Below are positions 3,211 through 54,655 of a DNA stretch of 64,000 nt, piece after piece. The first letter of the stretch is position 1. Each line of letters opens with the position of its first letter. A program made the position numbers and the translations under genes. Location: positions 3,685 through 67,684 of IMG/VR virus record IMGVR_UViG_2531839420_000002; one strand, given 5' to 3'. The stretch is from a virus. The notes below the pieces were generated by a model. It was not told where the DNA came from, ran no database searches, and saw nothing but the letters and a program-made list of their open reading frames with translations.

Positions 3211-3517
3211 CGTGCTCCAGCGCCGCCATGGCGACCTGAGTGACACGCCGGGACCTTGCCACCCATCGAGAATTTCCCGTCTGGGGCTGGGGTAAATCGC
3301 CCCGATTGAACCCCGCGTGTTTCGCGTTTTCCAGCCCCGTGGGGCGTAGGTAATGGGAAGTGAGCTACCCCTGTCGCCCCCGCCCCTCTTCTGCCCCTCT
3401 ACGCGCAATTTTCGCACATTCGCGAATACGTGATTTAGCGAATGTGCCAACCGATGCGCCTTTGGGATCGAGCGAAACTCTCCCCCATCGAAACGACGCG
3501 CATTGAGGAGACAGCGC

Positions 3518-4372
3518 ATGAGCAGAAAAGCGACTTTGACCCTCGTTCATCCGACGATCCCGCACTATCTGGCCGGTGTGACGGTCGAGGTGAAAGAGAT
3601 CACCCCTGAGTTTGCCAAGGAACTGCTCGACAGGCTTCAGACCGACAAGCGCCGAAACAGAAACTTCCGACGGTCCAACGCCGAGGCGATCCAGCGGGTC
3701 ATGGAAGCCGACTTGTTCAAGTTCAACGGCGAGAGCGTGGTGATCGACCGTGACGGCTTCCCGATCCAGGGGCAGCATCGCCTGTGGGCCTGCTGGAAGT
3801 CCAACAAGCCCTTCTGGACCGTCTTCGTCAACGGTGTCGATCCCGACGCGAAGGTGACGCTCGACACCTGCGCCAAGCGCAAGAATTCCGATGTGCTCAC
3901 CTACAGCAACGAGGTCCGCGCGACCGTCCTTGCCTCGGCGATCAACTGGCTGTGGCGCTATCGCAGCGGTGCCTCCCTCAGCAACCAAGGTAGCGTCAAC
4001 GCGCAAGAAATGCTGGCCCTGCTGAACGAAAACCCCGGGCTGCGCGCTTCGGTCGAAGCCACCCAACCCCTTGCCGGCATCACCCATCACTCCGTGGCCG
4101 CCTGGTGCCACTACGAGTTCGGGCTGGTGGATGCGACGGCGCGCGACTCGTTCTTCGAGAGCCTGATTGATGGCGCTGGCCTGAGCAAGGGGAGTCCGGT
4201 GCTGGCGCTGCGCAATCGGCTTTACAGCATGAAGAGGAGCGATCTGTTCGTTCGCAATGCGCACGTCGTGGTGCTCTTCATCCACGCCTGGAACGCCATG
4301 CGCCAGGGCAAGCGCGTCAAGAGTCTTGGCAGCGGGCACAAGCTGAGCGGTGCGATCCCGGTGATCTTTTAG
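3518..4372 (+). CDS. ParB/Srx N-terminal-like domain protein (phage ParB-like)
   Basis: RNFRRSN..FKFNGESVVID..QGQHRL resembles the NR..W..NGE.I...DGQHRL signature; RBS GAGGAG. Confidence 0.65.
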   Translation: MSRKATLTLVHPTIPHYLAGVTVEVKEITPEFAKELLDRLQTDKRRNRNFRRSNAEAIQRVMEADLFKFNGESVVIDRDGFPIQGQHRLWACWKSNKPFWTVFVNGVDPDAKVTLDTCAKRKNSDVLTYSNEVRATVLASAINWLWRYRSGASLSNQGSVNAQEMLALLNENPGLRASVEATQPLAGITHHSVAAWCHYEFGLVDATARDSFFESLIDGAGLSKGSPVLALRNRLYSMKRSDLFVRNAHVVVLFIHAWNAMRQGKRVKSLGSGHKLSGAIPVIF

Positions 4373-4463
4373 GCAATTCGCTCATTCGCTAATTAGCCGC
4401 CCGACCCGCCTACGTCGGACATGGAGACTGAACCCGTGAGCAACACAACGGGAGATAGACCCC

Positions 4464-4823
4464 ATGTCCGACAAGGTGTGGAACAAGGAAGCCATTCAAG
4501 AGCTTCTTGCCCGCAACGACGAAGCTGTCAAGCGCGCACTTCTGGCGGTATTCCGCCGACAGACCGCTGAAGAACAAACGACCGAGCGCACTCGTGAGAG
4601 CAACGGGGTCGGCTTCACCGGCCCCGACGCCGAGATCCTGACGAGCTTTGCCAAACAGCTCCAAACCCGCGGCTTTCTAAGCCCCAAACAGCTCGCCATC
4701 ACCCGCAACAAGATCAAGAAATACTGGCGTCAACTCCTTGACGAGATCGAAACCAAGGCAGGCTCACAGCAACGCCCGGCAGTGGCAGCCACCCAGACCC
4801 ACGCCGCCTACAGCTCGTTCTGA
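4464..4823 (+). CDS. Conserved hypothetical phage protein
   Basis: GGAGATAGAC leader; NGVGF..D..ILTSFAKQ..LSPKQ pattern recalled from large-phage hypotheticals. Confidence 0.75.
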   Translation: MSDKVWNKEAIQELLARNDEAVKRALLAVFRRQTAEEQTTERTRESNGVGFTGPDAEILTSFAKQLQTRGFLSPKQLAITRNKIKKYWRQLLDEIETKAGSQQRPAVAATQTHAAYSSF

Positions 4824-4921
4824 TCTGACGCTGGGCGGCTGTGCGAATTAGCGAATTCGCCGACCGCCCAGCCATAGGACTCTGGGTGAGAATGAGACAT
4901 CGACAACGAGAGGAGGCTCTG

Positions 4922-5233
4922 ATGTCCAGAAAAGGAATGATCGCCAGCGTTTATCGCGACGCCGATGGAGTTGATTGCACCAATGGCGGGATCAGCTCGA
5001 AAGCTGACCGGGTGCTGATCGTGGGCGAGGGCGTGCCCGAAATCTTCGCCGAGCGCAGTGGAATGCCGACGCTTTTGCTTGTGGATCGAGGCCCCAATCT
5101 GCCGCCGGCCCTTTATCCCGCCGATGATCTGCGGCCGGGTCGCTTCATGTTCGGCGGCAATTTCGCCTACAGCAGCGACAGCCGGTGGCCGACGGGCAAG
5201 CCGATCAAGATCCACGATCGAGCCGAGGACTAA
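4922..5233 (+). CDS. Hypothetical phage protein
   Basis: RBS GAGGAGG; DCTNGGISS..FMFGGNF pattern typical of phage hypotheticals. Confidence 0.65.
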   Translation: MSRKGMIASVYRDADGVDCTNGGISSKADRVLIVGEGVPEIFAERSGMPTLLLVDRGPNLPPALYPADDLRPGRFMFGGNFAYSSDSRWPTGKPIKIHDRAED

Positions 5234-5236
5234 GTC

Positions 5237-5419
5237 ATGACCAACCGCTTCTGCGTCCACTACCGCACCGGCGGCATCGCCAACTTCCGCTGGAACACCA
5301 CCTTCGAGTCGCTCGACACCACCGCGGCCCATGACATGGCCGCGCAGATCAGGCGCATGGGCTATCCCACCAAGATCGTCCCGGTCGGGGCGCCGCTTCC
5401 CACCAGCTACGAGGGCTGA
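5237..5419 (+). CDS. Small hypothetical protein
   Basis: Tightly packed in the operon; RBS GAGG. Confidence 0.55.
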   Translation: MTNRFCVHYRTGGIANFRWNTTFESLDTTAAHDMAAQIRRMGYPTKIVPVGAPLPTSYEG

Positions 5420-5422
5420 GCC

Positions 5423-5725
5423 ATGACCAAATACGCCTGGATCATTGACGCCGCCGAGGACGAACCCAGTATCATTGGCCCCAGCGACGCGCCGGAAGAC
5501 CTTCAGGATCGTCTGGTCGATGGCAAGGGGCTTCACTTCCGCCTTTATGACGATGACGACGAGCTTTGCCTGAAGGGCCGTTTGATAAGCGTCAATGCCG
5601 ACACGATGGCTGGTAACTACAGCGAGGAAGCGTTTGGGCCGCTTGATGACTTCGGGGCGCCGGCATATGGCTGCACTCGCATCGACTATCTGCATCCCAA
5701 GACCGAGCAATGGGAAACGCTTTAG
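5423..5725 (+). CDS. Hypothetical protein
   Basis: FRLYDDDDEL..G..YGCTRIDY pattern; packed in operon and followed by a terminator. Confidence 0.65.
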   Translation: MTKYAWIIDAAEDEPSIIGPSDAPEDLQDRLVDGKGLHFRLYDDDDELCLKGRLISVNADTMAGNYSEEAFGPLDDFGAPAYGCTRIDYLHPKTEQWETL

Positions 5726-5749
5726 CGGTTTCGCGAATTAGCAAACGAA

Positions 5750-5773
5750 AAGGGCCGGGAAATCCCGGCCCTT
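5750..5773. terminator. Hairpin between convergent genes, probable bidirectional terminator
   Basis: AAGGGCCGGGA-aa-TCCCGGCCCTT. Confidence 0.6.
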
Positions 5774-5793
5774 CTGCATTTGCGCCAAAAGCG

Positions 5794-6096
5794 TCAGTCG
5801 TGGGAAGAATGGGCGGCGTTGGGCTCCCGATAACAAGGGTTCTTCACCACGACATAGCGGGTGTAGCCGCCGCTTTCCTGATCGTTAATGGTGCCATCCT
5901 GGGCCACAGAAAACACCTCGGTGACGGGCAAATTCTTGGAACCGTCGTTATAGCCGGCGGTCTGGCACTTGCTGTTGGCAAAGTCCTCAGCGAGAGCGCT
6001 CAGAGCCGTGGCGCGCTCGAAATCGCTGGCGGCGAAAGCGGAACCAGCGGTGACAGCCAGCATGGCGAGGGAAAAGGTAAAGACAAACTTCTTCAT
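5794..6096 (-). CDS. Small exported protein (moron)
   Basis: MKKFVFTFSLAMLAVTAGSAFAA is a classic signal peptide; RBS GGAG; two Cys in the mature part. Confidence 0.7.
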   Translation of the reverse strand: MKKFVFTFSLAMLAVTAGSAFAASDFERATALSALAEDFANSKCQTAGYNDGSKNLPVTEVFSVAQDGTINDQESGGYTRYVVVKNPCYREPNAAHSSHD

Positions 6097-6277
6097 GGCG
6101 CATACTCCTTGGTCGAAATTTCGCGCCCCGTCGTGGGGCATGAGTCTATTATAGCCGGGCCGATATAGAATTTTGTGAGGCCGACGCTTTTTGCCGAACT
6201 TTCGCCGAAACATGTGCCTTGTTGCGCTGGGGTAAAGTTCCCTTGTCACAACACGACATTTCTGAGGTGAATACACC

Positions 6278-6667
6278 ATGTCCAGATCAACCAGAACGAG
6301 TCTTCTTTCGACTGCGACCGCGCTACCATCCGCCTATTCGCTAATTCGCTATGTCGCAGTGACCAAGGATGCATTGCAAAAACATCTTTTTTTCGCCTTT
6401 GTTCTCATCTGTCAACTGGCAGCGACGACACCGGCGATCAGCGACGAGTTCTACGTCAAGCGGGACAGCCGAGGCCGTCGCGTCAGGACCGTCGAACAAG
6501 GCCCAACCGATGGCTATTGGATTAGGAGGGACGAGAGCGGCCGTCGCGTCGGGACAGTCGAGAGAACCCCATACGGCGACAACATCGTGCGAGATAATCG
6601 TGGTCGCCGGATTGAAACCATTGAGAGGCGTAGTGATGACACGCCACAAACTCCTGGTCGCTGGTAA
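6278..6667 (+). CDS. Small exported protein with three RD.xGRRVxTVE repeats (true start probably about 6359-6375)
   Basis: Hydrophobic FFAFVLICQLAATTPAIS followed by three near-identical beta-hairpin-like repeats. Confidence 0.6.
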   Translation: MSRSTRTSLLSTATALPSAYSLIRYVAVTKDALQKHLFFAFVLICQLAATTPAISDEFYVKRDSRGRRVRTVEQGPTDGYWIRRDESGRRVGTVERTPYGDNIVRDNRGRRIETIERRSDDTPQTPGRW

Positions 6668-6741
6668 ATAGTCGAGGTTGACCATAATTTGCTCCCGGAT
6701 CGACTACCTCCGGTCGATCCGGCCTGTGGCTAGGACTAGCC

Positions 6742-8085
6742 ATGGCTCAATCATATACGAGACGCACCGTGGCAAGTCGCCTCAATTCAACCCTCGGTAT
6801 TCATTTTGATTGGGAGAGCGGCGAGGTTCGACAGAACAGCTCCGCCGCGATGCTGTCTCGCCAACAATCCGATTTGATGGAGATCCTTTGGCGCTGTCAC
6901 CCGCGCCCGGCCCGAAAAGAGGCGATTGTCTCCCAGCTCTACGGTGCCGCCGACGAGCCAGCAACCGCTGAAGACACGGTGCGCGTCCAGGTGGCCCAGC
7001 TCAGGCGCAAACTGACCCAGGCGGCGGTGAGCGTGAACATCACGACCGTTCGGAGCGTCGGTTATCGCCTCGATTTTGCACCCGATGCGACGCCGATCCA
7101 GAAACCTCTGGGCACCCAGATCTGCACGGTCGCGGTTCTCGACGAGTTCCTGACTTCCCTCGATGCCGCAACCGACGCCATGCAAATGGGTCAAGCGCTG
7201 ACCAGGGCTGCCCAGCAGCTCGGCTTCACCTACACGGGATACCAACTTGTCGCGGTTCCGGGGATCGACCACGATGGTCCACTGCCCCTGTTCGTGTCGG
7301 ACATCCCGGCGGAATGGGCCAGGGATTACGTCAACCACGACCTGGTGAAGCACGATCCGGCGGTCAGGGCCGCCATGATGTCGTCGAACGCCTTCACATG
7401 GCACACGTCGGAAGTTGTTGATGCGATTGACGACGAGACCATCGCGTCCATGGCTAGACGTGTCATTGCCAATGGCATCCTCGGCGGCTTCACCGTCCCC
7501 ATACACGACGCCGATGGAACCAGGGCCTTGGTCAATTTTCTCGTGACCGTAGACAAGGCTGAAGCAATCAGGCTGGTCGAGAACAATGGCCCGCTGCTGC
7601 GCCTGATCGCTTCACACTTGCACTCGCATATCCTGCCGCCGATGAGGGCCGCAGCCGAGGAGAGATTGGGGCCGCAGCTCACAGAGACCGAGATCGCTTT
7701 CCTCGGCACCAAGATGGCAGAAGTCTGCGCCAACGTGTGCGACTGCGAAGGCGGCTGCGGCTTGATCAGGAAAAAACTCGGTGCCAACTCGTGCATCCAG
7801 GCGGTGGTCAAGGCGATGCGTCTCGGTCTCATCAAGATGGCTACCTTCATCGTGGCACTGATGACGCTCGTCGCCGCGGTTCTCGACGATGAGCAGCTAC
7901 TTTCGGTCGATGAAAATAAGGATTACTACCGCCATAGCGATGCTATGCACAATTCCGCATATGGCACGCAACACTCGACCCGCTCCCGAAAAAGAAAGCT
8001 CGTATGCAATGACCCTTGCGCCCCTTTTTTCGCCCCGTGGGAGTGCGGAACCCAAAGCGGGACAGTGGGGGAGGGGAGGGGATAG
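6742..8085 (+). CDS. Hybrid regulator: N-terminal OmpR/PhoB winged helix, LuxR autoinducer-binding domain, degenerate LuxR HTH
   Basis: VRVQVAQLRRKL..ITTVRSVGYRL (Trans_reg_C); EW..DY..HDP..FTW..GG (conserved AHL-pocket residues); IRKKLGA..QAVVKAMRLGLI (LuxR C-terminal tail). Confidence 0.8.
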   Translation: MAQSYTRRTVASRLNSTLGIHFDWESGEVRQNSSAAMLSRQQSDLMEILWRCHPRPARKEAIVSQLYGAADEPATAEDTVRVQVAQLRRKLTQAAVSVNITTVRSVGYRLDFAPDATPIQKPLGTQICTVAVLDEFLTSLDAATDAMQMGQALTRAAQQLGFTYTGYQLVAVPGIDHDGPLPLFVSDIPAEWARDYVNHDLVKHDPAVRAAMMSSNAFTWHTSEVVDAIDDETIASMARRVIANGILGGFTVPIHDADGTRALVNFLVTVDKAEAIRLVENNGPLLRLIASHLHSHILPPMRAAAEERLGPQLTETEIAFLGTKMAEVCANVCDCEGGCGLIRKKLGANSCIQAVVKAMRLGLIKMATFIVALMTLVAAVLDDEQLLSVDENKDYYRHSDAMHNSAYGTQHSTRSRKRKLVCNDPCAPFFAPWECGTQSGTVGEGRG

Positions 8086-28882: not shown

Positions 28883-28924
28883 GTCGGCGCTGTCCATTCA
28901 ACGCTGACTTTTTGCTTGCGCGCG

Positions 28925-44401: not shown

Positions 44402-44824
44402 ATGGTGCAAACTCACAAGGATGTGGTAGAATTGATCGGTATCGCGTTCCGTTACGGCGGGCGCGGGCCCGAAGACTACGACTGTTGGGGCCTGTTGATG
44501 GAGCTGTGTCGCCGGGATAATAAAGTCATCCCTGACTTTCGCAGCACTTCCAATATAGCGAAGATCGCCAGGATCATGGCGACCAACAGGCACCAGTGGC
44601 GACAGATCGAGCTTCGGCCAGGCTGCGGGCTCTGGTTTCGGGTCCGGGGGTTCGCGTCGCACGTCGGCTACTACCTGGGGAACGACAAGTTCGTTCACAC
44701 CTGGGAGGAGTCAGGCGGCGTTGTGGTTGAGCGGCTGAGCCAGTGGGAACACCGTCTGATTGGGGCCTTTGAGTATGTCGGAGACGAAGCAGATCCAGCC
44801 GCTTTACGCCCTGGCGAACCCTGA
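44402..44824 (+). CDS. NlpC/P60 tail assembly protein (gpK C-terminal-like, no JAB domain)
   Basis: GI.FRYGGR..DCWGL..HVGYYLG..FVH. Confidence 0.88.
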   Translation: MVQTHKDVVELIGIAFRYGGRGPEDYDCWGLLMELCRRDNKVIPDFRSTSNIAKIARIMATNRHQWRQIELRPGCGLWFRVRGFASHVGYYLGNDKFVHTWEESGGVVVERLSQWEHRLIGAFEYVGDEADPAALRPGEP

Positions 44825-47800
44825 AGCCAAGGTAAACTGCCTCATCGTTTACAACCCCCTCGATGTCAGCCAGCGCTCGCGCTGCGAGATTGTCTGGGGC
44901 CTGAACCGGACGCTGGCCGACTATTTGGATGGCCTGCCCGAGGGGATCGAGTGGGGCGTCTGTGTCAACGCGGACGCGATCGAGCGCGAGCGCTGGGGAA
45001 GCATCTATCTCGCACCCGATGACTGGATCACGCTGATGCCGGTCCCCGAGGGCGGCGGAGGGGGGGGTGGGAAAACTGTAATGCGTCTTGTGGCAATGAT
45101 TGCTGTTGCGGTCGTTGCCTGGCAGGCGGCTCCATATCTCGCTTCAATGATCCCTGGGGCAGTGGCCGCTGGCCCTACGATTACCGGCGCCGCCGGCTAC
45201 ATGACGACGATGGGGAGCATTGCCTCTTCTGTAATCGGCGGCGCGATTACAGTTGTCGGTGGCATGCTGGTCAACGCTCTGATGCCAGCACCCAGGGCCA
45301 AGACTGCCGACGCGTCGTGGAACTCATCCTCGGGCGGAACCGATAGCCCCTCTTATGGCATCGACGGTGCCAAAAACACAGCGAATGAGGGCGTTCCGGT
45401 GCCGGTCCCCTATGGCGCGTTCCGCATCGGCGGCAACATCGTCAATTTCAAAACCGTCAATGACGACAACACCCAGATCATTTACATGATGACCGCTCTG
45501 GGTGAGGGCGAGATTGAGAGTGTCTCGGACATCGAGATCAACGAACAGCCTCTTTCGAACTACAGCGACGTGGAGGTGATCACTCGTCTGGGCGTCAACA
45601 ACCAGGAAATAATCCCCTGGTTCGATGACACCCTGGCCTCCTACAACCGCGGCGTCAAGATCACCCGCAACTGGACCAAGCACAAGACCGTCGGCGAAGT
45701 TGACAGGTTCCGCGTTGACGTTGTGTTCCCTTATGGCCTGTGTGGGACGGATACCGCCAGCGGCGGTCGCGTGACGATCTCTGTCCCGGTCGAGATCCAG
45801 TATCGTAAGGTGGGCAGCGCCGTCTGGAGCACTCTAGGCGTCTACGACATCGGCGCTGCCCAGCGCACCGCCCTGCGCAGGAGCTTCGAGTCGCCGCTGC
45901 TCGAACAGGGGCAGTATGAAATCTGGGTGCGCCGCAACACTGACGATAGCGACTCCGATACTATTCAGGATGACGTTAATCTGTCTGATGTGTGGGAAAT
46001 CGTTACTGACGATGTTTGCTATAATCACTCAGCGATCTTGGCACTTAAGATAAAGCTGACGGATCAGCTTTCCGGGGTGCCCAAGGTCACGGCGTTGGTA
46101 AAGGGGCGGAAGCTCAACATCTTTGATCGTCGCGGCGATCTCGTTTCAACCGTCTTCAGCGCGAACCCGGCGTGGATCGCGATCGACATCCTGACGCACC
46201 AGCGCTACGGCGGAGGGATGGGGCTCTCTCGGATCGATTTCCCCCGCTGGGTCGATCTGGCTGATTACTGCGCCGAAAAGGGCTTGGAGTTTAACGGCGT
46301 CTTCGACTTTAACACCAACGTCTGGGAGGCGCTCCAGAACGTCCTACGCGTCGGGCACGCCCAGATCATCAATGTCGGCACCCGCTATTCCGTGGCGATC
46401 GAACGCCCCGACGATCCTGTGATGATGTTCGGTGTCGGCGACATTATCGCCGACACCTTCAACATCGAATGGCTGGCGCTCGAGGACCGGGCGAACGAAA
46501 TCGAGGTCGCCTACTACGATCGCGACGATGGCCACAAGCGGCGCACTATCAAGGTGGCCGACGAGGAGGCCCTGGACCGCGGCGTCCCCCAGCGTTCCGC
46601 GAGCGTCGCTCTTCTCGGCGTGACCAGCGTCGATCAGGCATACAAGGAAGGCTGGCTTCAGCTTGCGCTGAACAAATACATCCTCCAAACCGTCTCCTTT
46701 GACGCTCCGCTGAGCGCCATCGCCTGCACCGTCGGCGACCTGGTGTTTGTGCAGCACGACATGCCGAAGTGGGGCGACGCTGGCAAGGTCGAGGCCGGCT
46801 GCACGTCTAGCTTGATCAAGCTAGACCGCCCAGTCACGATGGTCGCCGGGCGGCAATATAAGTGCCTGATCCACTTTGATGCCCTGAAGCGCTACACCGG
46901 CATCGTGCATCACATTGTCGGCACTTCGGTTTTCGTGTCCGGGATCGACGACGCCACCTTGAAGCACTGCCGGCGGTTCGTCAGCAATGGGCATGATATC
47001 GCCGTTCTAGGGTTGGTGAAGCAGAACCCCTATGTCGAGGTTATCCTCGACACCACGAGCGGGTTGGCCACCGGCGCGTCGTTCGAGCTGTGGGATACCG
47101 ACGTTCTCGAGGATCGCTCGGTCGTCGGCGCCGCCGCAAGCGGGGAGGTGACAGAGATCACCCTCGCCACGCCGCTGAGCCAGGCGCCAGCCCAGTTCGC
47201 CAACTGGATGTTCGGCGAGAACACCAAGATCAAGAAGCCATTCCGCGTGCTTTTGATCGCCGGCCAGGGCGAATACACGCGGACACTGAGCTGCCTCGAA
47301 TACAACGAGTCGGTCTACCAGGACCCCGAGCACGCCACGCCGACGCCGAACTATTCAGCGCTGCGCGGGGGCATCGGGCACGTTCTCGACCTAGCTGCCG
47401 TCGAGGAGCTTTATCAGGTCGGCAGTGCCGTCAGGACGCGCCTGAACATTGGCTGGACACAGCCGTTGACCGGGCTCTATGGCGGTGCCGACATCTACCT
47501 GTCGATCAACAATGGCGAATATCGCCTGATCGACAGCGTGGTCGGCACGGTCTATTCGATGGATGTCACCGACGGCGATCGGATGTCGTTCGTCGTGGTG
47601 GCCAAGGATGCGCTTGGCGTGCGCGCCGAGCGCATCACGGCCCCGAGTGTCTGGCATCTGGTGCTCGGAAAGACCACCCCGCCGGCGGACGTGACCAACT
47701 TCTCCGTTCGGAAGGTGCCGGGCGGCATCGAGTTCACCTGGAGCCCGATCCCCGACATCGACCTTCGGGGATATGAGATCCGCGAGGGCCTGTCCTGGGA

Positions 47801-49037
47801 TGATGGCGTCGTGATCATGCACGACTTCATGGGAACCCAGTTCACCGCCGCGAAGGCGGCCGCCGGCGCCTTCGCCTGGCACATTCGGGCGAAGGACACC
47901 AACGGGAACTACTCGAACGGCGTCGCCACCTGCCGTCTCAACGTGCCAGCACCGAGGTCGGTGCGCGGCTTCAACGTGGTCAAGAACATCGACACCCTTC
48001 ATTTCGTGTGGCTGCCGAACAGCGAGGTGGACATCAGCCACTATGAGATCCGCGAGGGCGCGACGTGGGCTTCCGGCATCGTCATCGGCCGCATTCAGGG
48101 CGCCCAGCACACGGTCCCGGCGGCGACCGGCGGAAATCGTTCGTTCTGGATCAAGGCGGTGGATAGCGCTGGCATCTACAGTGATCAGGCTGCGTTCACG
48201 ATGACCACGGTGGCGATCAGTGATGACCACAATCTGATCCTGGCCAAGAATGAGTCGGCTAACAGCTACCCCGGCACCAGGCTGAACATGGACACGAACG
48301 GTAGCGATCTCGTCATGAGCGTTGGTGCTCAGCACGGCGAATATATCCACAAGATCGAGTTGGCGACGCAGAATACCGGGCGGGTGATCATCAACGACGC
48401 TTTCGACGCTATCATTGTGGATGGGAAGACCTGGGGCGACGCCGGGTTTAATTGGGCAAGCGCGGACTCGAACGTGCCGTGGATCAGACCGGGCATCCTC
48501 GACACCATCTCGATCGAGCGGCAGATCGCCATCTGGAGCGGGTTGCAGGCGGGCGAGATCGAAGCGTGGTCGATGAACGGGATGGTTGTCGGCATGAAGG
48601 GGACAGCCGCCGTGACGAACTCGAAGATCACCTTCGAGCAGGGTCGCTTCAACCAGGGCGCCCTGATCGGGGATACCTCGGCTCTGAAATACGACTACAC
48701 GGTGCCGGACGCCTTCAACATGACGTTCTGGATGAAGCCGAAGCAGACCAGCGTGGGCAATAGCTTCCGCGTCGTCACCCTGTCGAAGACGGCAGGCTAC
48801 ATGCGTCTGGAGTATGACGATCAGCTCCGGTGCTTTGTGCTGGACTGCTCTGACGGGGTTCTGCTGCGCACAGATGCCCTTGATTTCGGGCCGGGGGACT
48901 TCCTGTTGTTCGCCCTTGTTCAGACCCCCGCGGCCCGCAGAGTGCATGTCGGGCGGGCGCGGGGGAGGGCAATCGTTACCGGGTCGGTAACGAAGCCGGC
49001 GATCACCGGGTTCGACACGATCCAGTTCGCCGCGTAG
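44775..49037 (+). CDS. Tail tip / host-specificity protein J-like, with N-terminal gpI-like segment, FN3 repeats and C-terminal LamG-like domain
   Basis: PVPYG..GGN..GEGEIE..NPAW..DIL; repeated PPADV.NF..W..YEIREG..W; C-terminal F...WMKP. Confidence 0.92.
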   Translation: MSETKQIQPLYALANPEAKVNCLIVYNPLDVSQRSRCEIVWGLNRTLADYLDGLPEGIEWGVCVNADAIERERWGSIYLAPDDWITLMPVPEGGGGGGGKTVMRLVAMIAVAVVAWQAAPYLASMIPGAVAAGPTITGAAGYMTTMGSIASSVIGGAITVVGGMLVNALMPAPRAKTADASWNSSSGGTDSPSYGIDGAKNTANEGVPVPVPYGAFRIGGNIVNFKTVNDDNTQIIYMMTALGEGEIESVSDIEINEQPLSNYSDVEVITRLGVNNQEIIPWFDDTLASYNRGVKITRNWTKHKTVGEVDRFRVDVVFPYGLCGTDTASGGRVTISVPVEIQYRKVGSAVWSTLGVYDIGAAQRTALRRSFESPLLEQGQYEIWVRRNTDDSDSDTIQDDVNLSDVWEIVTDDVCYNHSAILALKIKLTDQLSGVPKVTALVKGRKLNIFDRRGDLVSTVFSANPAWIAIDILTHQRYGGGMGLSRIDFPRWVDLADYCAEKGLEFNGVFDFNTNVWEALQNVLRVGHAQIINVGTRYSVAIERPDDPVMMFGVGDIIADTFNIEWLALEDRANEIEVAYYDRDDGHKRRTIKVADEEALDRGVPQRSASVALLGVTSVDQAYKEGWLQLALNKYILQTVSFDAPLSAIACTVGDLVFVQHDMPKWGDAGKVEAGCTSSLIKLDRPVTMVAGRQYKCLIHFDALKRYTGIVHHIVGTSVFVSGIDDATLKHCRRFVSNGHDIAVLGLVKQNPYVEVILDTTSGLATGASFELWDTDVLEDRSVVGAAASGEVTEITLATPLSQAPAQFANWMFGENTKIKKPFRVLLIAGQGEYTRTLSCLEYNESVYQDPEHATPTPNYSALRGGIGHVLDLAAVEELYQVGSAVRTRLNIGWTQPLTGLYGGADIYLSINNGEYRLIDSVVGTVYSMDVTDGDRMSFVVVAKDALGVRAERITAPSVWHLVLGKTTPPADVTNFSVRKVPGGIEFTWSPIPDIDLRGYEIREGLSWDDGVVIMHDFMGTQFTAAKAAAGAFAWHIRAKDTNGNYSNGVATCRLNVPAPRSVRGFNVVKNIDTLHFVWLPNSEVDISHYEIREGATWASGIVIGRIQGAQHTVPAATGGNRSFWIKAVDSAGIYSDQAAFTMTTVAISDDHNLILAKNESANSYPGTRLNMDTNGSDLVMSVGAQHGEYIHKIELATQNTGRVIINDAFDAIIVDGKTWGDAGFNWASADSNVPWIRPGILDTISIERQIAIWSGLQAGEIEAWSMNGMVVGMKGTAAVTNSKITFEQGRFNQGALIGDTSALKYDYTVPDAFNMTFWMKPKQTSVGNSFRVVTLSKTAGYMRLEYDDQLRCFVLDCSDGVLLRTDALDFGPGDFLLFALVQTPAARRVHVGRARGRAIVTGSVTKPAITGFDTIQFAA

Positions 49038-51149: not shown

Positions 51150-51195
51150 TTGTCTTGACCTCCTCGCGAGGCTATAATAAAGTCAACGCTGAGTT
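51150..51195 (+). promoter_or_regulatory. Sigma70 promoter with operator immediately after -10, upstream of the fibre-partner-rSAM genes
   Basis: TTGTCT-N17-TATAAT, then AAGTCAACGCTGAGTT. Confidence 0.6.
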
Positions 51196-51207: not shown

Positions 51208-52170
51208 ATGCAGAGCTATACCGAGATCACCGACACCATGACACTGACGGCCTCCAGGCCCCTGCTGCTAAACAACGACAAGTCGATTATGTCGTGCTTC
51301 AGCGGCACCGCGTTCCCGACGATCAATCTTCAGGTCGGTATGCTGTGCCTGCGCACCGACACCTGGCAGCTCTGGCAGCTCAAAGACGCGACGCCGACCT
51401 GGGTGCTGATCGCTGACATTTCGAAAACCTATCTTTCTAAGGAGACGGCCGACACCTATTACGCCGCTCTTGCGCACAATCACAATTCGACCTACGCCGC
51501 TCTTGTGCACAATCACGATGGCGGCGCTATCACCGCCGGCACGGTGGCTTCTGCGCGCTTGCCGGCGCCGCTTCAGCAAATCACTGCCGCTGTAAATTGG
51601 GGGGCGGTGACTATCGGCGGCGTGAATGGCGGTTGGGCTGGGATCAATTTTTCCGGCACGGGAATGTATTTCCTCGTGGGTGGGGACTCTCACGGTTTTT
51701 GGACAGGCTCCGCTTGGAAATGGCATGTCAATAATGGCGTGCTGAGCGTAGGCGTCGTTCCCGTCGCCAATGTTTCCGGTCTGGGCAGTGCCGCCACCTG
51801 CAACACGGGGACAGCCGTCGGAAACGTGCCTGCGGTGCAGGCTGATGGAAAACTGCCTGCTTCCGTGATCCCGGTGGATCTGTCGAGTCGCGTCGCCAAA
51901 TCAGGCGACACCATGACTGGTCAGCTCAATGGAACGGTTTTCAAGTCAACCGGGGCATCGTCTGCTTCGACTGGTTTCAAAATTAGCACTGGGGCGGATC
52001 TAGGAGCCTTGTTCAAAGACATTAATTACACCGCAGTTCAGACTGTTTCCATCTCCAATCCTGAGGGATGGTGCGGACAACCAACAAGCTTGTCTGTTTC
52101 CGGTGGTATTTCGGGGAACAATTTGAGTCTTGGGATTAATTGCAACTGCCTTTGCAATTGCGGAGGCTGA
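51208..52170 (+). CDS. Tail fibre protein with HxH repeats and C-terminal Cys-rich tail (NCNCLCNCGG)
   Basis: YAALAHNH/YAALVHNH 33-bp repeat; LGSAAT..G..GNVP and VAKSGDTMTG fibre motifs; terminal CNCLCNCGG. Confidence 0.82.
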   Translation: MQSYTEITDTMTLTASRPLLLNNDKSIMSCFSGTAFPTINLQVGMLCLRTDTWQLWQLKDATPTWVLIADISKTYLSKETADTYYAALAHNHNSTYAALVHNHDGGAITAGTVASARLPAPLQQITAAVNWGAVTIGGVNGGWAGINFSGTGMYFLVGGDSHGFWTGSAWKWHVNNGVLSVGVVPVANVSGLGSAATCNTGTAVGNVPAVQADGKLPASVIPVDLSSRVAKSGDTMTGQLNGTVFKSTGASSASTGFKISTGADLGALFKDINYTAVQTVSISNPEGWCGQPTSLSVSGGISGNNLSLGINCNCLCNCGG

Positions 52171-52171
52171 G

Positions 52172-52912
52172 ATGATTTTTTTCTGCAAAAATTCAGCGTC
52201 CAACGGTTTTCACGTTGCCGTTTCAAATCTGGATGACGGTATCCGGGTCGAGCTTCATCTTCCTGATGAAGGTGGAAAATTAAACCGTGTTGCCGCAAGG
52301 GATTTTCATTACGAAGATTGGCGAAATCTTCGCGGTTGGTCTGACCGTGCCTCGTGGATGATCACCTCGGATTGCGTTATGAACGGAGCGACGCCGTTTA
52401 ATCTTTATGAGAGATCCTGGCCCTTTCGCACGAGCGCGGTGGAAACCACGTCAACGATTTCGTGCTTTACCCCGGTTGTCTCTGTTCTTGTGCCGACGGC
52501 AACGGCGCCCGTGAGTCGCTGGTCGTATATTGTTTTCGCCGCAGATCGAAGCAAAGTTGTCGGCAGCTTTCCGATTGACGAAGAGGCGTCTTCTGGCGAC
52601 GAGGTGAGGGAGCGAGTTTCCCCTAAGCTGGTATTTGAAAATTTCCCTGACGCGCTGCCGAGTAATGGCTTTGTCGATCTCTCGCTCAAATTGGTCGATT
52701 TTGCCGATAAGCCTGTTGAACTGGACGCAACGGCCGAAGTGTCGGCGACTGGAGGCGTTTTGTCGTGCTCGAGACCTCAGATCAAGAGCGGGCGCGGGAC
52801 TGTTCGATGGTTTGGCGCTTACACGAGTCCCGGTGACGTTCTGGATGTAAAGGTGGGGTTCAAGCTTTTTTCTGGAACCGACAAGCGGTCTCTGAAGGTG
52901 ATCGAGGGGTAG
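52172..52912 (+). CDS. Uncharacterised partner protein with C-terminal Ig-like beta-sandwich
   Basis: Starts 1 nt after the fibre stop; C-terminus LSLKLVD..V.ATGG.L..G.GTV..DVKVGF. Confidence 0.7.
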   Translation: MIFFCKNSASNGFHVAVSNLDDGIRVELHLPDEGGKLNRVAARDFHYEDWRNLRGWSDRASWMITSDCVMNGATPFNLYERSWPFRTSAVETTSTISCFTPVVSVLVPTATAPVSRWSYIVFAADRSKVVGSFPIDEEASSGDEVRERVSPKLVFENFPDALPSNGFVDLSLKLVDFADKPVELDATAEVSATGGVLSCSRPQIKSGRGTVRWFGAYTSPGDVLDVKVGFKLFSGTDKRSLKVIEG

Positions 52913-52914
52913 CG

Positions 52915-54207
52915 ATGGAGCCGATTTTTCACGAGGTAACGCTTCGGGATCGGGGTGGAAAAGATGAAGTTTTCCGTTTCGACAGCGCCAACATGCGTTT
53001 GCTTGATCAATTTGGCGTTCTGATCGAGCCAAAGATTGACGCTTCTCTTCCGACCTTCGGAAGTTGTGGATCGAAGCCTGCAAGGGTTATTTCTCCGACG
53101 GCTCCCGGACGAAAGAGTCGCGATCTTTCATATATCAAGCTGCTGCTTGGCTTTTCTTGCAACTTCAATTGCACCTATTGCAATCAGAGGTCTCAGACGC
53201 ATGATGGCGCAAGCACGGGTGATCCCGAGGCGTTCGTCGAGGGGATGTCCAAGTGGTGCTCGGGCGGGAGCGATGATCTAGGTTCTGGTCTTCGCATGAG
53301 CCTGTGGGGCGGTGAGCCATTCGTTTATTGGAGCGTTTTGAAAAAGATGGTTCCCGCGCTGCGGCGACGCTACCCGCATATCGCCCTGAGCATGGTGACG
53401 AATGGGTCGCTTCTGACCCAGGAGCGCGTGAACTTTGTGTGCGAAAACGACATCAATTTGATGATCAGCCATGATGGACCTGGCCATTATCTTCGAGGAG
53501 TTGATCCCTTAAAGGACTCCTCCATTGTGGAGCTGATTTGTCAGCTTCTTGATCGTCGTGGCAAGGAGAAGGTTGGCTTCAATTGTGTTTTGACCAGGGA
53601 GAATTGCTCCCTGTCGAGAATTCACGATCACATCGCTGAAGCTCTTGGTCGTGAAGATTTTGGGTTCTCGACGGAGGGTGTTGTTCAGACTGAGGACGAC
53701 GGTTCTTTTTCGGTTTCCCCATCGTCGAAGGAAAATTACGAGGATATTTATTTGACGCTGCTGAAAGATGCCATCGAAGGGGGCGCTCTCAAGGCTGGAA
53801 CCTACAACCTCGAATATATCGGTGCCCTGAGAGCCTTTTCGGAGCACCCGGAAATGAATGCGTGGGGTCAGCGCTGCGGTTTGGACCGGGATGACGTGTT
53901 GGCGGTTGATCTTGCTGGCAATGTTTTAACTTGTCAGAACGAGATTGATCCCTCAATGCGAATTGGCCACGTAAACAATCTCGACGCGGTGCGCTTGAAT
54001 ACCAGCTATCACTTTATGGCGCGCGAGAGTTGTGTTCGTTGTCCTGTAGTGCAGCTTTGCAAAGGCGGCTGTATGCATCAGACGGGAGTTGCTTGGGAAA
54101 CGACCTGTCGCAATCATTACCACTATCATCTTTCTGTTCTGGCCACGGCGATATTCTCCATGACGGGCAAGATTTTAGTAGGGATTTGCTCTGACGATAA
54201 GGCGTAA
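52915..54207 (+). CDS. Radical SAM/SPASM-domain protein (peptide/protein maturase type)
   Basis: CNFNCTYC (CxxxCxxC); WGGEPF; TNGSLL; ISHDG; SPASM C..D..G....C and CVRCPVVQLCKGGC..C. Confidence 0.93.
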   Translation: MEPIFHEVTLRDRGGKDEVFRFDSANMRLLDQFGVLIEPKIDASLPTFGSCGSKPARVISPTAPGRKSRDLSYIKLLLGFSCNFNCTYCNQRSQTHDGASTGDPEAFVEGMSKWCSGGSDDLGSGLRMSLWGGEPFVYWSVLKKMVPALRRRYPHIALSMVTNGSLLTQERVNFVCENDINLMISHDGPGHYLRGVDPLKDSSIVELICQLLDRRGKEKVGFNCVLTRENCSLSRIHDHIAEALGREDFGFSTEGVVQTEDDGSFSVSPSSKENYEDIYLTLLKDAIEGGALKAGTYNLEYIGALRAFSEHPEMNAWGQRCGLDRDDVLAVDLAGNVLTCQNEIDPSMRIGHVNNLDAVRLNTSYHFMARESCVRCPVVQLCKGGCMHQTGVAWETTCRNHYHYHLSVLATAIFSMTGKILVGICSDDKA

Positions 54208-54298
54208 AGTCAGCGTTGAATGATCGCTTTTAGCGTGAGATAATGAACGGGCCGCGGCGGTGCTCGCGGCCCGTTCACTCATTTGAGAGGAGACCGCA

Positions 54299-54655
54299 GT
54301 GTCCGACCCGCAGCAGAACACTGCCAGCGCTGTTCTGATCGGCCTGGGAGAGCTGAAGGGCCAGATGACCTCGCTTCAGGCGTTCCTGGCTTCGCACACC
54401 GAGCGAATGGATCGCCAGGACGAGCGAATGGATCGCCAGGACGAGCGAATGAACGAATTCAGCCGGAAGCTGCACGAGCACAATCAGGCCGACATCACCA
54501 CCCATGAGGCAGTGCAGGAGAAAGTCAGCAGGGCGAAGAGCGAGCTGACCGAGCGCATCACCAAAGTCGAGAACAAGATCGCCTACTGGAGTGGCGGGCT
54601 TGCCATCATCTCGCTGTTCATTGGTGTTCTTCTCAAGAAGCTGGGGCTGGTGTGA
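54299..54655 (+). CDS. Holin-like / coiled-coil protein with C-terminal TM helix
   Basis: Coiled coil then WSGGLAIISLFIGVLL; directly before the lysin. Confidence 0.6.
   Translation: MSDPQQNTASAVLIGLGELKGQMTSLQAFLASHTERMDRQDERMDRQDERMNEFSRKLHEHNQADITTHEAVQEKVSRAKSELTERITKVENKIAYWSGGLAIISLFIGVLLKKLGLV
54400..54451 (+). repeat. 21-bp tandem repeat (2.5 copies) encoding a heptad
   Basis: CGAGCGAATGGATCGCCAGGA twice plus CGAGCGAATG. Confidence 0.9.

Follow-up and report, generated by a model that had tools for sequence, protein, structure and literature searches.

A mobile tail-fibre cassette in which a radical SAM/SPASM enzyme may thioether-link a C-terminal cysteine ladder

Radical S-adenosylmethionine (SAM) enzymes with a SPASM domain are, in several described systems, encoded beside a Cys-rich substrate, as with PapB/PapA (freyrasin) and NxxcB/NxxcA. 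PapB joins a Cys sulfur to the carbon beside an Asp or Glu carboxylate and also accepts C-terminal residues (PMC12373016). The streptococcal NxxcB/NxxcA pair is a Cys-Asn β-thioether system, QhpD puts several Cys-to-Asp/Glu thioethers in QhpC, a subunit that stays within a larger assembly, and the anaerobic sulfatase-maturating enzyme (anSME), of the same class, acts on full-size proteins. Here, we analyze a comparable locus in a 64,000-nucleotide stretch of virus DNA (IMG/VR record IMGVR_UViG_2531839420_000002, positions 3,685 to 67,684), referred to below as the window. According to open reading frame (ORF) calling, this prophage DNA holds an abutting trio of genes on the + strand, encoding a tail-fibre-type protein that ends in an alternating Cys ladder, a partner protein and a radical SAM/SPASM enzyme. 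An earlier note, made from the letters of this DNA, had drawn attention to the trio.

Along its entire length, the window enzyme aligns to the PapB model, but the score of 72.6 bits is far under the equivalog cut-off of 340 (NF047865), which places the enzyme outside that family. PapB substrates have a CX3D spacing, whereas the ladder considered here carries a Cys at every second residue, and the substrates of PapB and NxxcB are small leader-core peptides, whereas the candidate substrate here is the terminus of a large fibre protein of the virion. The likeness to NxxcB/NxxcA lies in the N-x-x-C motif: in our own reading, the (Asn-Cys)n run holds overlapping motifs of this type. Together with PapB, QhpD gives the best full-length NCBIfam match (73.8 bits, residues 68-404), and both are formers of Cys-to-Asp/Glu thioethers. 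As in QhpC, the modified protein is proposed to remain part of a larger assembly, but QhpC is a small periplasmic enzyme subunit of non-phage origin, with widely spaced cross-links and no alternating ladder; the window enzyme also falls outside the QhpD family (TIGR03906, cut-off 453 bits), and its neighbours are phage tail and lysis genes. The same is true for the anaerobic sulfatase maturases (TIGR03942, 50 vs 349 bits), no sulfatase being encoded nearby, and for the SCIFF maturases (TIGR03974, 51.7 vs 425 bits), represented by CteB (5WGG), a close full-length SPASM relative of solved structure; in both cases substrate and motif differ. Compared with ranthipeptide systems, finally, the window system has a partner family with an Ig-like domain and a partner in which no recognition element for peptides that are made on ribosomes and modified after translation (RiPPs) was found.

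Structural locks of other kinds are known, namely the isopeptide chainmail of the HK97 capsid, the iron-binding HxH sites at the tips of T4 gp37-type fibres and the C-terminal cystine knot of collagen. These are functional analogues in that they stabilize oligomeric structural proteins, and some carriers of the ladder are themselves collagen-like. However, their links are autocatalytic, metal-mediated or oxidative, whereas the locus described here encodes a dedicated radical enzyme together with the fibre.

The ladder and its enzyme across phages

The fibre gene (51208..52170, +) encodes a 320-aa protein with a C-terminal Cys ladder and two HxH repeats. Its last residues are I-N-C-N-C-L-C-N-C-G-G, and the abrupt Cys-rich terminus described in the earlier note is indeed present, the protein ending NCNCLCNCGG. 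The ladder proper, N311-G320 (52138..52167, +), comprises C312, C314, C316 and C318, and across 42 clusters of ladder proteins these four Cys columns show almost no variation; an additional cysteine, C289, lies 23 residues before C312. The protein had no match in Pfam, NCBIfam or PHROGs models, nor among PDB sequences. Its N-terminus, however, shares 45.6% identity with gp028, the fibre of Achromobacter phage JWF, and its residues 131-293 share 38.6% with the distal subunit of a Vibrio phage long tail fibre, and this homology to known fibres, together with a position in the tail module after the J gene, identifies it as a phage tail fibre. A 27-nt direct repeat at 51460-51519 encodes two Y-A-A-L-x-H-N-H units, which constitute its HxH motifs; in T4 gp37-type fibres, such motifs bind iron.

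The third gene (52915..54207, +) encodes a 430-aa protein assigned to phrog_1802. It passes the Pfam Radical_SAM model (PF04055, 31.1 bits vs a cut-off of 29.5) and the NCBIfam SPASM model (TIGR04085, 36.3 bits vs 27, residues 321-390). In an alignment of 20 family members, the CxxxCxxC cysteines C82, C86 and C89 are invariant, as are the SPASM cysteines C321, C340, C373, C376, C382, C386 and C398, a seven-Cys motif that in this subfamily serves two auxiliary 4Fe-4S clusters. The two models and the alignment thus agree with the initial description of a CxxxCxxC motif plus a full SPASM Cys set. The family is large, with more than 1343 proteins at E<=1e-10 and more than 555 matches in IMG/VR; the 302 matches in species-representative genomes belong chiefly to Alpha- and Betaproteobacteria.

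For a survey of the ladder, 160 loci of the enzyme family were fetched and scanned by script for ORFs of at least 50 aa, located within 3.2 kb of the enzyme gene and ending in (Cys-x)n with at least three Cys in the last 14 residues. A ladder ORF was present upstream on the same strand in 106/161 enzyme loci, whereas the control positions gave four (upstream, opposite strand), none (downstream, same strand) and two (downstream, opposite strand). In 11 further loci, the ladder tract is directly followed by a self-cleaving Hint domain. When Hint-fused ladders, two-Cys ladders and a few filter misses are included, the ladder is found in about 120 loci, out of 136 with upstream DNA of sufficient length. 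A reverse scan of IMG/VR for DNA able to encode NCNCNCNC returned at least 120 stretches. Among the matches listed, 39 were testable, that is, unique, with the tract at the end of an ORF no shorter than 60 aa and in a locus of sufficient length, and in 38 of these 39 a member of the enzyme family lies downstream on the same strand. The other NCNCNCNC matches consist of AT-rich pseudo-ORFs of tiny size or of internal tracts with low complexity. Co-occurrence of CxC-rich C-termini with radical SAM/SPASM genes, which the earlier note had put forward as a check, thus holds in both directions, and ladder loci are spread throughout the enzyme tree.

The NCNCNCNC DNA pattern also occurs in contigs of giant-virus metagenome-assembled genomes (L195, L197, L200, L207, L215, L229, L260 and L262), in frames that are tiny or AT-rich and of low complexity, with no enzyme gene. 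These matches are probably microsatellite-like repeats, not members of the fibre system.

The association bears directly on the idea that the ladder binds a metal or an iron-sulfur cluster in the trimeric fibre, as a Cys analogue of the HxH iron sites, with the enzyme employed otherwise. Cys-x-Cys repeats are classic metal ligands, three chains would bring many thiolates together, and the window fibre does contain two HxH repeats. However, a metal site needs no dedicated enzyme, and yet the ladder nearly always comes with one, as the reverse scan demonstrates, while the enzyme in phage DNA is almost never found without a ladder. We therefore regard a metal site as very improbable. Collectively, well over a hundred unrelated phages carry the set of ladder and enzyme, and the comparison of these loci indicates that the fibre tip is very probably modified enzymatically, and most likely cross-linked.

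Ladder carriers, the Ig-like partner and non-phage relatives

Clustering by sequence divides the 114 ladder proteins into 42 groups, and their lengths range from 61 to 891 aa. Their PHROG matches are overwhelmingly to tail fibre, tail protein and collagen-like minor tail families, and their Pfam matches are to Collagen, the T7 tail fibre N-domain, CBM_5_12 and Hint. The carriers thus belong to many unrelated tail-fibre families, which corroborates the proposal that the candidate substrate is a structural fibre protein. Within 99 unique tails, the ladder runs comprise 2-12 cysteines (median 4), and Asn precedes the first ladder Cys in 85. The x positions are occupied by Asn (52%), Ala (21%), Asp (12%) and Arg (6%). 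In 51 of these tails the last ladder residue directly precedes the stop codon, and in the rest the ladder ends within a few residues of it (0-7 overall). The alternative arrangement, observed for JWF gp028 and in ten other loci, has the ladder directly followed by Cys-1 of the Hint domain, and self-cleavage of Hint would leave the ladder on the fibre rather than free it. Judging from these tails, the ladder seems always to form the C-terminus of the mature protein, and in tail fibres the C-terminus is normally the distal end.

Several carriers have unusual forms. On a jumbo-phage contig (L019, 8456-9200), two ORFs of about 190 aa contain long (CxCxCNY)n arrays, the second followed by S-D-I-R-L-K, which we take to resemble an S74 intramolecular chaperone cleavage site. 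In other jumbo-phage loci, namely Ralstonia phage RP12 (L003, 484-861) and L006-L018, ORFs of 66-94 aa lie upstream of clusters of at least three radical SAM genes and end in an HTH-IFYDDY motif, then a (Cys-Asn)n run and R-G; these short ORFs with their enzyme clusters look like a small-protein version of the ladder system. A 171-aa ORF at about nt 54 of locus L166, 5.8 kb upstream of the enzyme gene, carries a Lys/Gln-Cys ladder of more than 25 Cys, unlike the Asn-rich ladders. The cultivated Ralstonia phage RSP15 (L001, Ackermannviridae) holds a full module at 3431-7341, with a side tail fibre whose C-terminus reads N-C-Q-C-G-N, a homologue of the partner, an additional 277-aa protein of family fam3 and the radical SAM enzyme. 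RSP15 and Achromobacter phage JWF are available experimental systems.

The partner gene (52172..52912, +), which defines family fam0, encodes 246 aa from its ATG, and its product had no match in Pfam, NCBIfam or PHROGs models. Its structure was predicted with a mean confidence (pLDDT) of 90.7. The C-terminal 95 residues or so adopt in this model an Ig-like domain of Big_1/intimin type, matched by VIA with Z 10-11 and a root-mean-square deviation of 2.0-2.5 over about 92 residues. The matches, to the Ig domains of GH2 proteins and to intimin, are at the level of fold, with no Pfam sequence match. The Ig-like character ascribed to the partner therefore holds for its C-terminal domain. The N-terminal domain, modelled alone with pLDDT 88, gave no recognized fold in Foldseek searches of the PDB or in wide VIA searches, the best solved match being SPP1 gp22 at Z 3.9, and whole-partner fold searches of AFDB and the Atlas returned uncharacterized relatives only. 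In sequence, one position of the family is invariant and four are nearly so. Out of 1.84 billion, a partner profile matched 931 cluster representatives (E<=1e-10), each a stand-alone protein of about 240-320 aa.

Hidden Markov models built from the genes between ladder and enzyme detected fam0 in 91 of the 106 ladder loci. Another family, fam1, with a weak match to PF13759 and resembling 2-oxoglutarate-Fe(II) oxygenases, occurs in about 65 of the 106; it shows no association with Asn/Asp-rich ladders (p 0.55, relatedness ignored). In 12 loci, a second radical SAM paralogue separates the ladder from the enzyme. In this respect, the locus of the window is a minimal trio. The partner may be a presenter or chaperone of the tail, or itself a tip protein. 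The latter role is central to a reading in which the enzyme welds the ladder covalently to the partner with its Ig-like domain, or to a different protein of the tip, and so creates a permanently attached adhesin. The partner gene does occupy the position of tail-fibre adhesins and assembly proteins, its Ig-like domain is of an exposed type, and the family, frequent as it is in ladder loci, is absent from all ten loci of the YcaO type described below. Against this, 15 ladder loci have no detectable partner, and the few conserved positions of the family offer no obvious acceptor site. We consider such intermolecular welding quite unlikely.

The exceptions to the ladder association are informative about the enzyme family. 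Ten loci that are not phage-like, all from Burkholderiales genomes (L053, L061, L085, L089, L098, L100 and L102-L105), form two small clades nested in the enzyme tree, with enzymes 35-38% identical to that of the window. Their clusters encode a SagB-YcaO fusion, an ATP-grasp-like protein and a candidate precursor of about 90 aa with a D-C-G-C or N-C-D core, followed by the radical SAM enzyme. Exporters are present in some, and some include an outer-membrane efflux protein (OEP) and a HlyC-type acyltransferase; ABC/HlyD-like C-termini were recognized by eye in L085 and L105. No NCBIfam equivalog matched these clusters. From their gene content, they are ordinary RiPP clusters, which supports the assignment of the family as Cys-directed peptide or protein maturases and does not weaken the link to fibres. 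Five more loci (L066, L068, L118, L179 and L187) are without explanation. The earlier note had treated homologues lacking Cys-rich fibre tails as a point against its proposal. Such homologues do exist, but they are few, being confined to the two nested YcaO-type clades and these five loci.

RiPP-type relatives raise the question of whether the fibre-like protein is only a leader or carrier from which the ladder peptide is cut off as a free RiPP, for instance with the role of a toxin, a signal or an exclusion factor. Some carriers, at 61-120 aa, are indeed short and look like a leader plus core, as in the RP12-like jumbo phages, and relatives of the enzyme reside in true RiPP clusters with exporters. 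However, most phage loci contain neither protease nor exporter, the carriers belong to bona fide fibre families of up to 891 aa, including collagen-like ones, and Hint cleavage would, by its general chemistry, keep the ladder on the fibre. A free RiPP is accordingly a highly improbable product. A RiPP system in the narrow sense has a short leader-core precursor, a recognition domain and release of the core; the window cassette presents a 320-aa fibre as candidate substrate, a partner whose N-terminal domain shows neither a recognition element nor another known fold (best Z 3.9), and no protease or exporter.

Likely chemistry at the fibre tip

Modification of the fibre ladder cysteines by the radical SAM enzyme is most likely, and is the reading best supported by the comparison of loci, from which we infer the substrate role of the fibre. 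As to its outcome, thioether cross-links are probably the product, since the nearest full-length functional relatives of the enzyme make thioethers, the tract consists of Cys and mostly Asn or Asp, and N-x-x-C motifs overlap along it. The use of C-terminal acceptors by PapB fits, in turn, a ladder at a free C-terminus. The presence of Ala, Arg and Leu at x positions would call for a Cα acceptor, as in sactipeptides, or for links between the chains of the trimer. Overall, we think it probable that the locus is a mobile fibre-tip cassette whose enzyme thioether-links the Cys ladder of the fibre, giving a stapled distal tip.

In such a mechanism, the (Asn/Asp/Ala-Cys)n ladder at the extreme C-terminus of the fibre would serve as substrate. 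The enzyme would act during late gene expression, in the reducing cytoplasm, and abstract hydrogen from the ladder region. Cysteine sulfurs would then be joined to carbons of neighbouring residues, forming thioethers of ranthipeptide or sactipeptide type, either within one chain or among the three fibre chains. The outcome would be a covalently stapled, reduction-proof distal tip, which may bear on fibre stability, assembly or host range, and the partner could present the tail to the enzyme or cap the modified tip at the receptor-binding end. More tentatively, the thioether staples may run between chains, across the three ladders of a trimer, or connect the ladder to the Ig-like tip protein, tying the receptor-binding end into a covalent knot that resists reduction, the whole constituting a swappable host-range cassette; we hold this extended version to be possible but doubtful.

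A number of observations weigh against thioether formation. None of the characterized NCBIfam subfamily models comes near its cut-off with the window enzyme, which also sits on a long branch of the family tree (1.39). Its best profile match among solved structures is TvgB (8VPO), a cyclopropylglycine synthase that forms a C-C bond, and this match covers the radical SAM half only; anSME (4K36, E 1e-14) and CteB (5WGG, E 1e-13) come next and are the closest full-length ones. The N-terminal domain of the partner lacks a PqqD-like fold, so that no RiPP recognition element is apparent. Furthermore, Ala and Arg at the frequencies given above, and Leu once in the window, mean that the β-carbons of Asn and Asp are not a universal acceptor. 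The bond chemistry is inferred, and SPASM enzymes carry out many reactions, including C-C bond and formylglycine formation.

The last of these reactions underlies another explanation, in which the enzyme alters the ladder cysteines with no cross-links, by anSME-like conversion of Cys to formylglycine or by some other radical chemistry on Cys, yielding a reactive or unusual tip. The place of anSME among the closest full-length solved relatives, its action on whole proteins and its 50-bit score are in keeping with this, as is the fact that Cys is the sole invariant feature of the tract while x varies. On the other hand, that score compares with a cut-off of 349 bits and is exceeded by those of PapB and QhpD. 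Sulfatases are matured at a C/S-x-P/A-x-R motif, and this motif is absent from the ladders. Alteration without cross-linking thus seems fairly unlikely, and thioether linkage of the ladder remains our preferred reading.

Cassette boundaries, locus layout and significance

The nearest relative is a 4.7-kb metagenome contig, whose radical SAM enzyme is 61% and partner 55% identical to those of the window. Its fibre has an unrelated N-terminus and shaft, and similarity to the window fibre starts at residue 223, just before a GDTMTGQLNG motif; its tail carries a different ladder, likewise ending C-G-G. The cassette-borne fibre tip of the window can thus be placed at residues ~223-320 (51874..52170, +), where this homology and a shift in GC content begin. 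GC falls from about 0.59 to 0.45-0.55 at ~51,900, roughly 25-100 nt past 51874, and recovers at 54,200. From the start of homology and the fall in GC at about the same place, we conclude that the fibre tip, partner and enzyme were acquired jointly, are grafted on different shafts and move as one cassette. In the host family, the enzyme is patchy (7/83 genomes, best 41% identical), as expected of prophage cargo. We also considered that the enzyme might be an unrelated auxiliary metabolic gene, and rejected this given its two-way linkage to the ladder and the shared cassette boundary.

The layout of the trio was borne out in full: the ORFs at 51208-52170, 52172-52912 and 52915-54207 leave 1 nt between fibre stop and partner and 2 nt between partner stop and enzyme. 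A ribosome-binding site, GGAGG or GAGGGG, precedes each of the three starts, with GGAGG before the partner and GAGGGG before the enzyme. In line with the earlier note, no plausible small precursor ORF rich in Cys was found in the cassette, the sole other match being a 55-codon alternative frame within the partner gene. Upstream of the fibre gene, a σ70-like promoter (TTGTCT-17 nt-TATAAT; 51150..51178, +) was recognized by consensus match alone. It is followed by a palindrome, AAAGTCARCGYTGA, a candidate operator at 51179..51192, which forms an inverted-repeat pair with a second copy at 54206..54219; the latter overlaps the stop codon of the enzyme gene and marks the cassette end before the lysis genes. 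Candidates for the promoter and operator noted ahead of the trio, and for the operator copy noted at its end, are thus in place. The AAAGTCARCGYTGA motif has 44 sites in the window (at most two mismatches) against 1.4 expected, mostly intergenic, for example at 28898, 33742/33782, 44388, 49043, 51179, 54206, 55832, 57493 and 61714, and probably either is bound by a phage regulator or belongs to a class of phage promoters. Upstream of the trio lies the gene for the central tail fibre protein J (44760-49037; phrog_31, E 8e-147). Downstream, a lysis block encodes a coiled-coil membrane protein (at 54299) and an endolysin of family GH108 (at 54652). The region had no megablast match in the phage collection.

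Full-text literature searches on radical SAM enzymes together with tail fibres or virions found no paper on a ladder and radical SAM fibre system, and the searched literature describes no dedicated post-translational modifier of tail-fibre tips. Fibre tips determine which bacteria a phage infects. If the ladder is cross-linked by the enzyme, RiPP-type radical chemistry would have been recruited for virion building; and should staples between chains, or between ladder and partner, prove true, this would be the first post-translational modification of a virus particle by a radical enzyme. The system is large, judging from the enzyme matches in IMG/VR and the cluster representatives of the partner. 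For enzymology, it would offer a new substrate motif for thioether-forming radical SAM enzymes, alternate-residue Cys at a free C-terminus. It also bears on the stabilization of fibres in the reducing cytoplasm and in harsh environments, and on fibre engineering, where a tip moved without its enzyme may fail.

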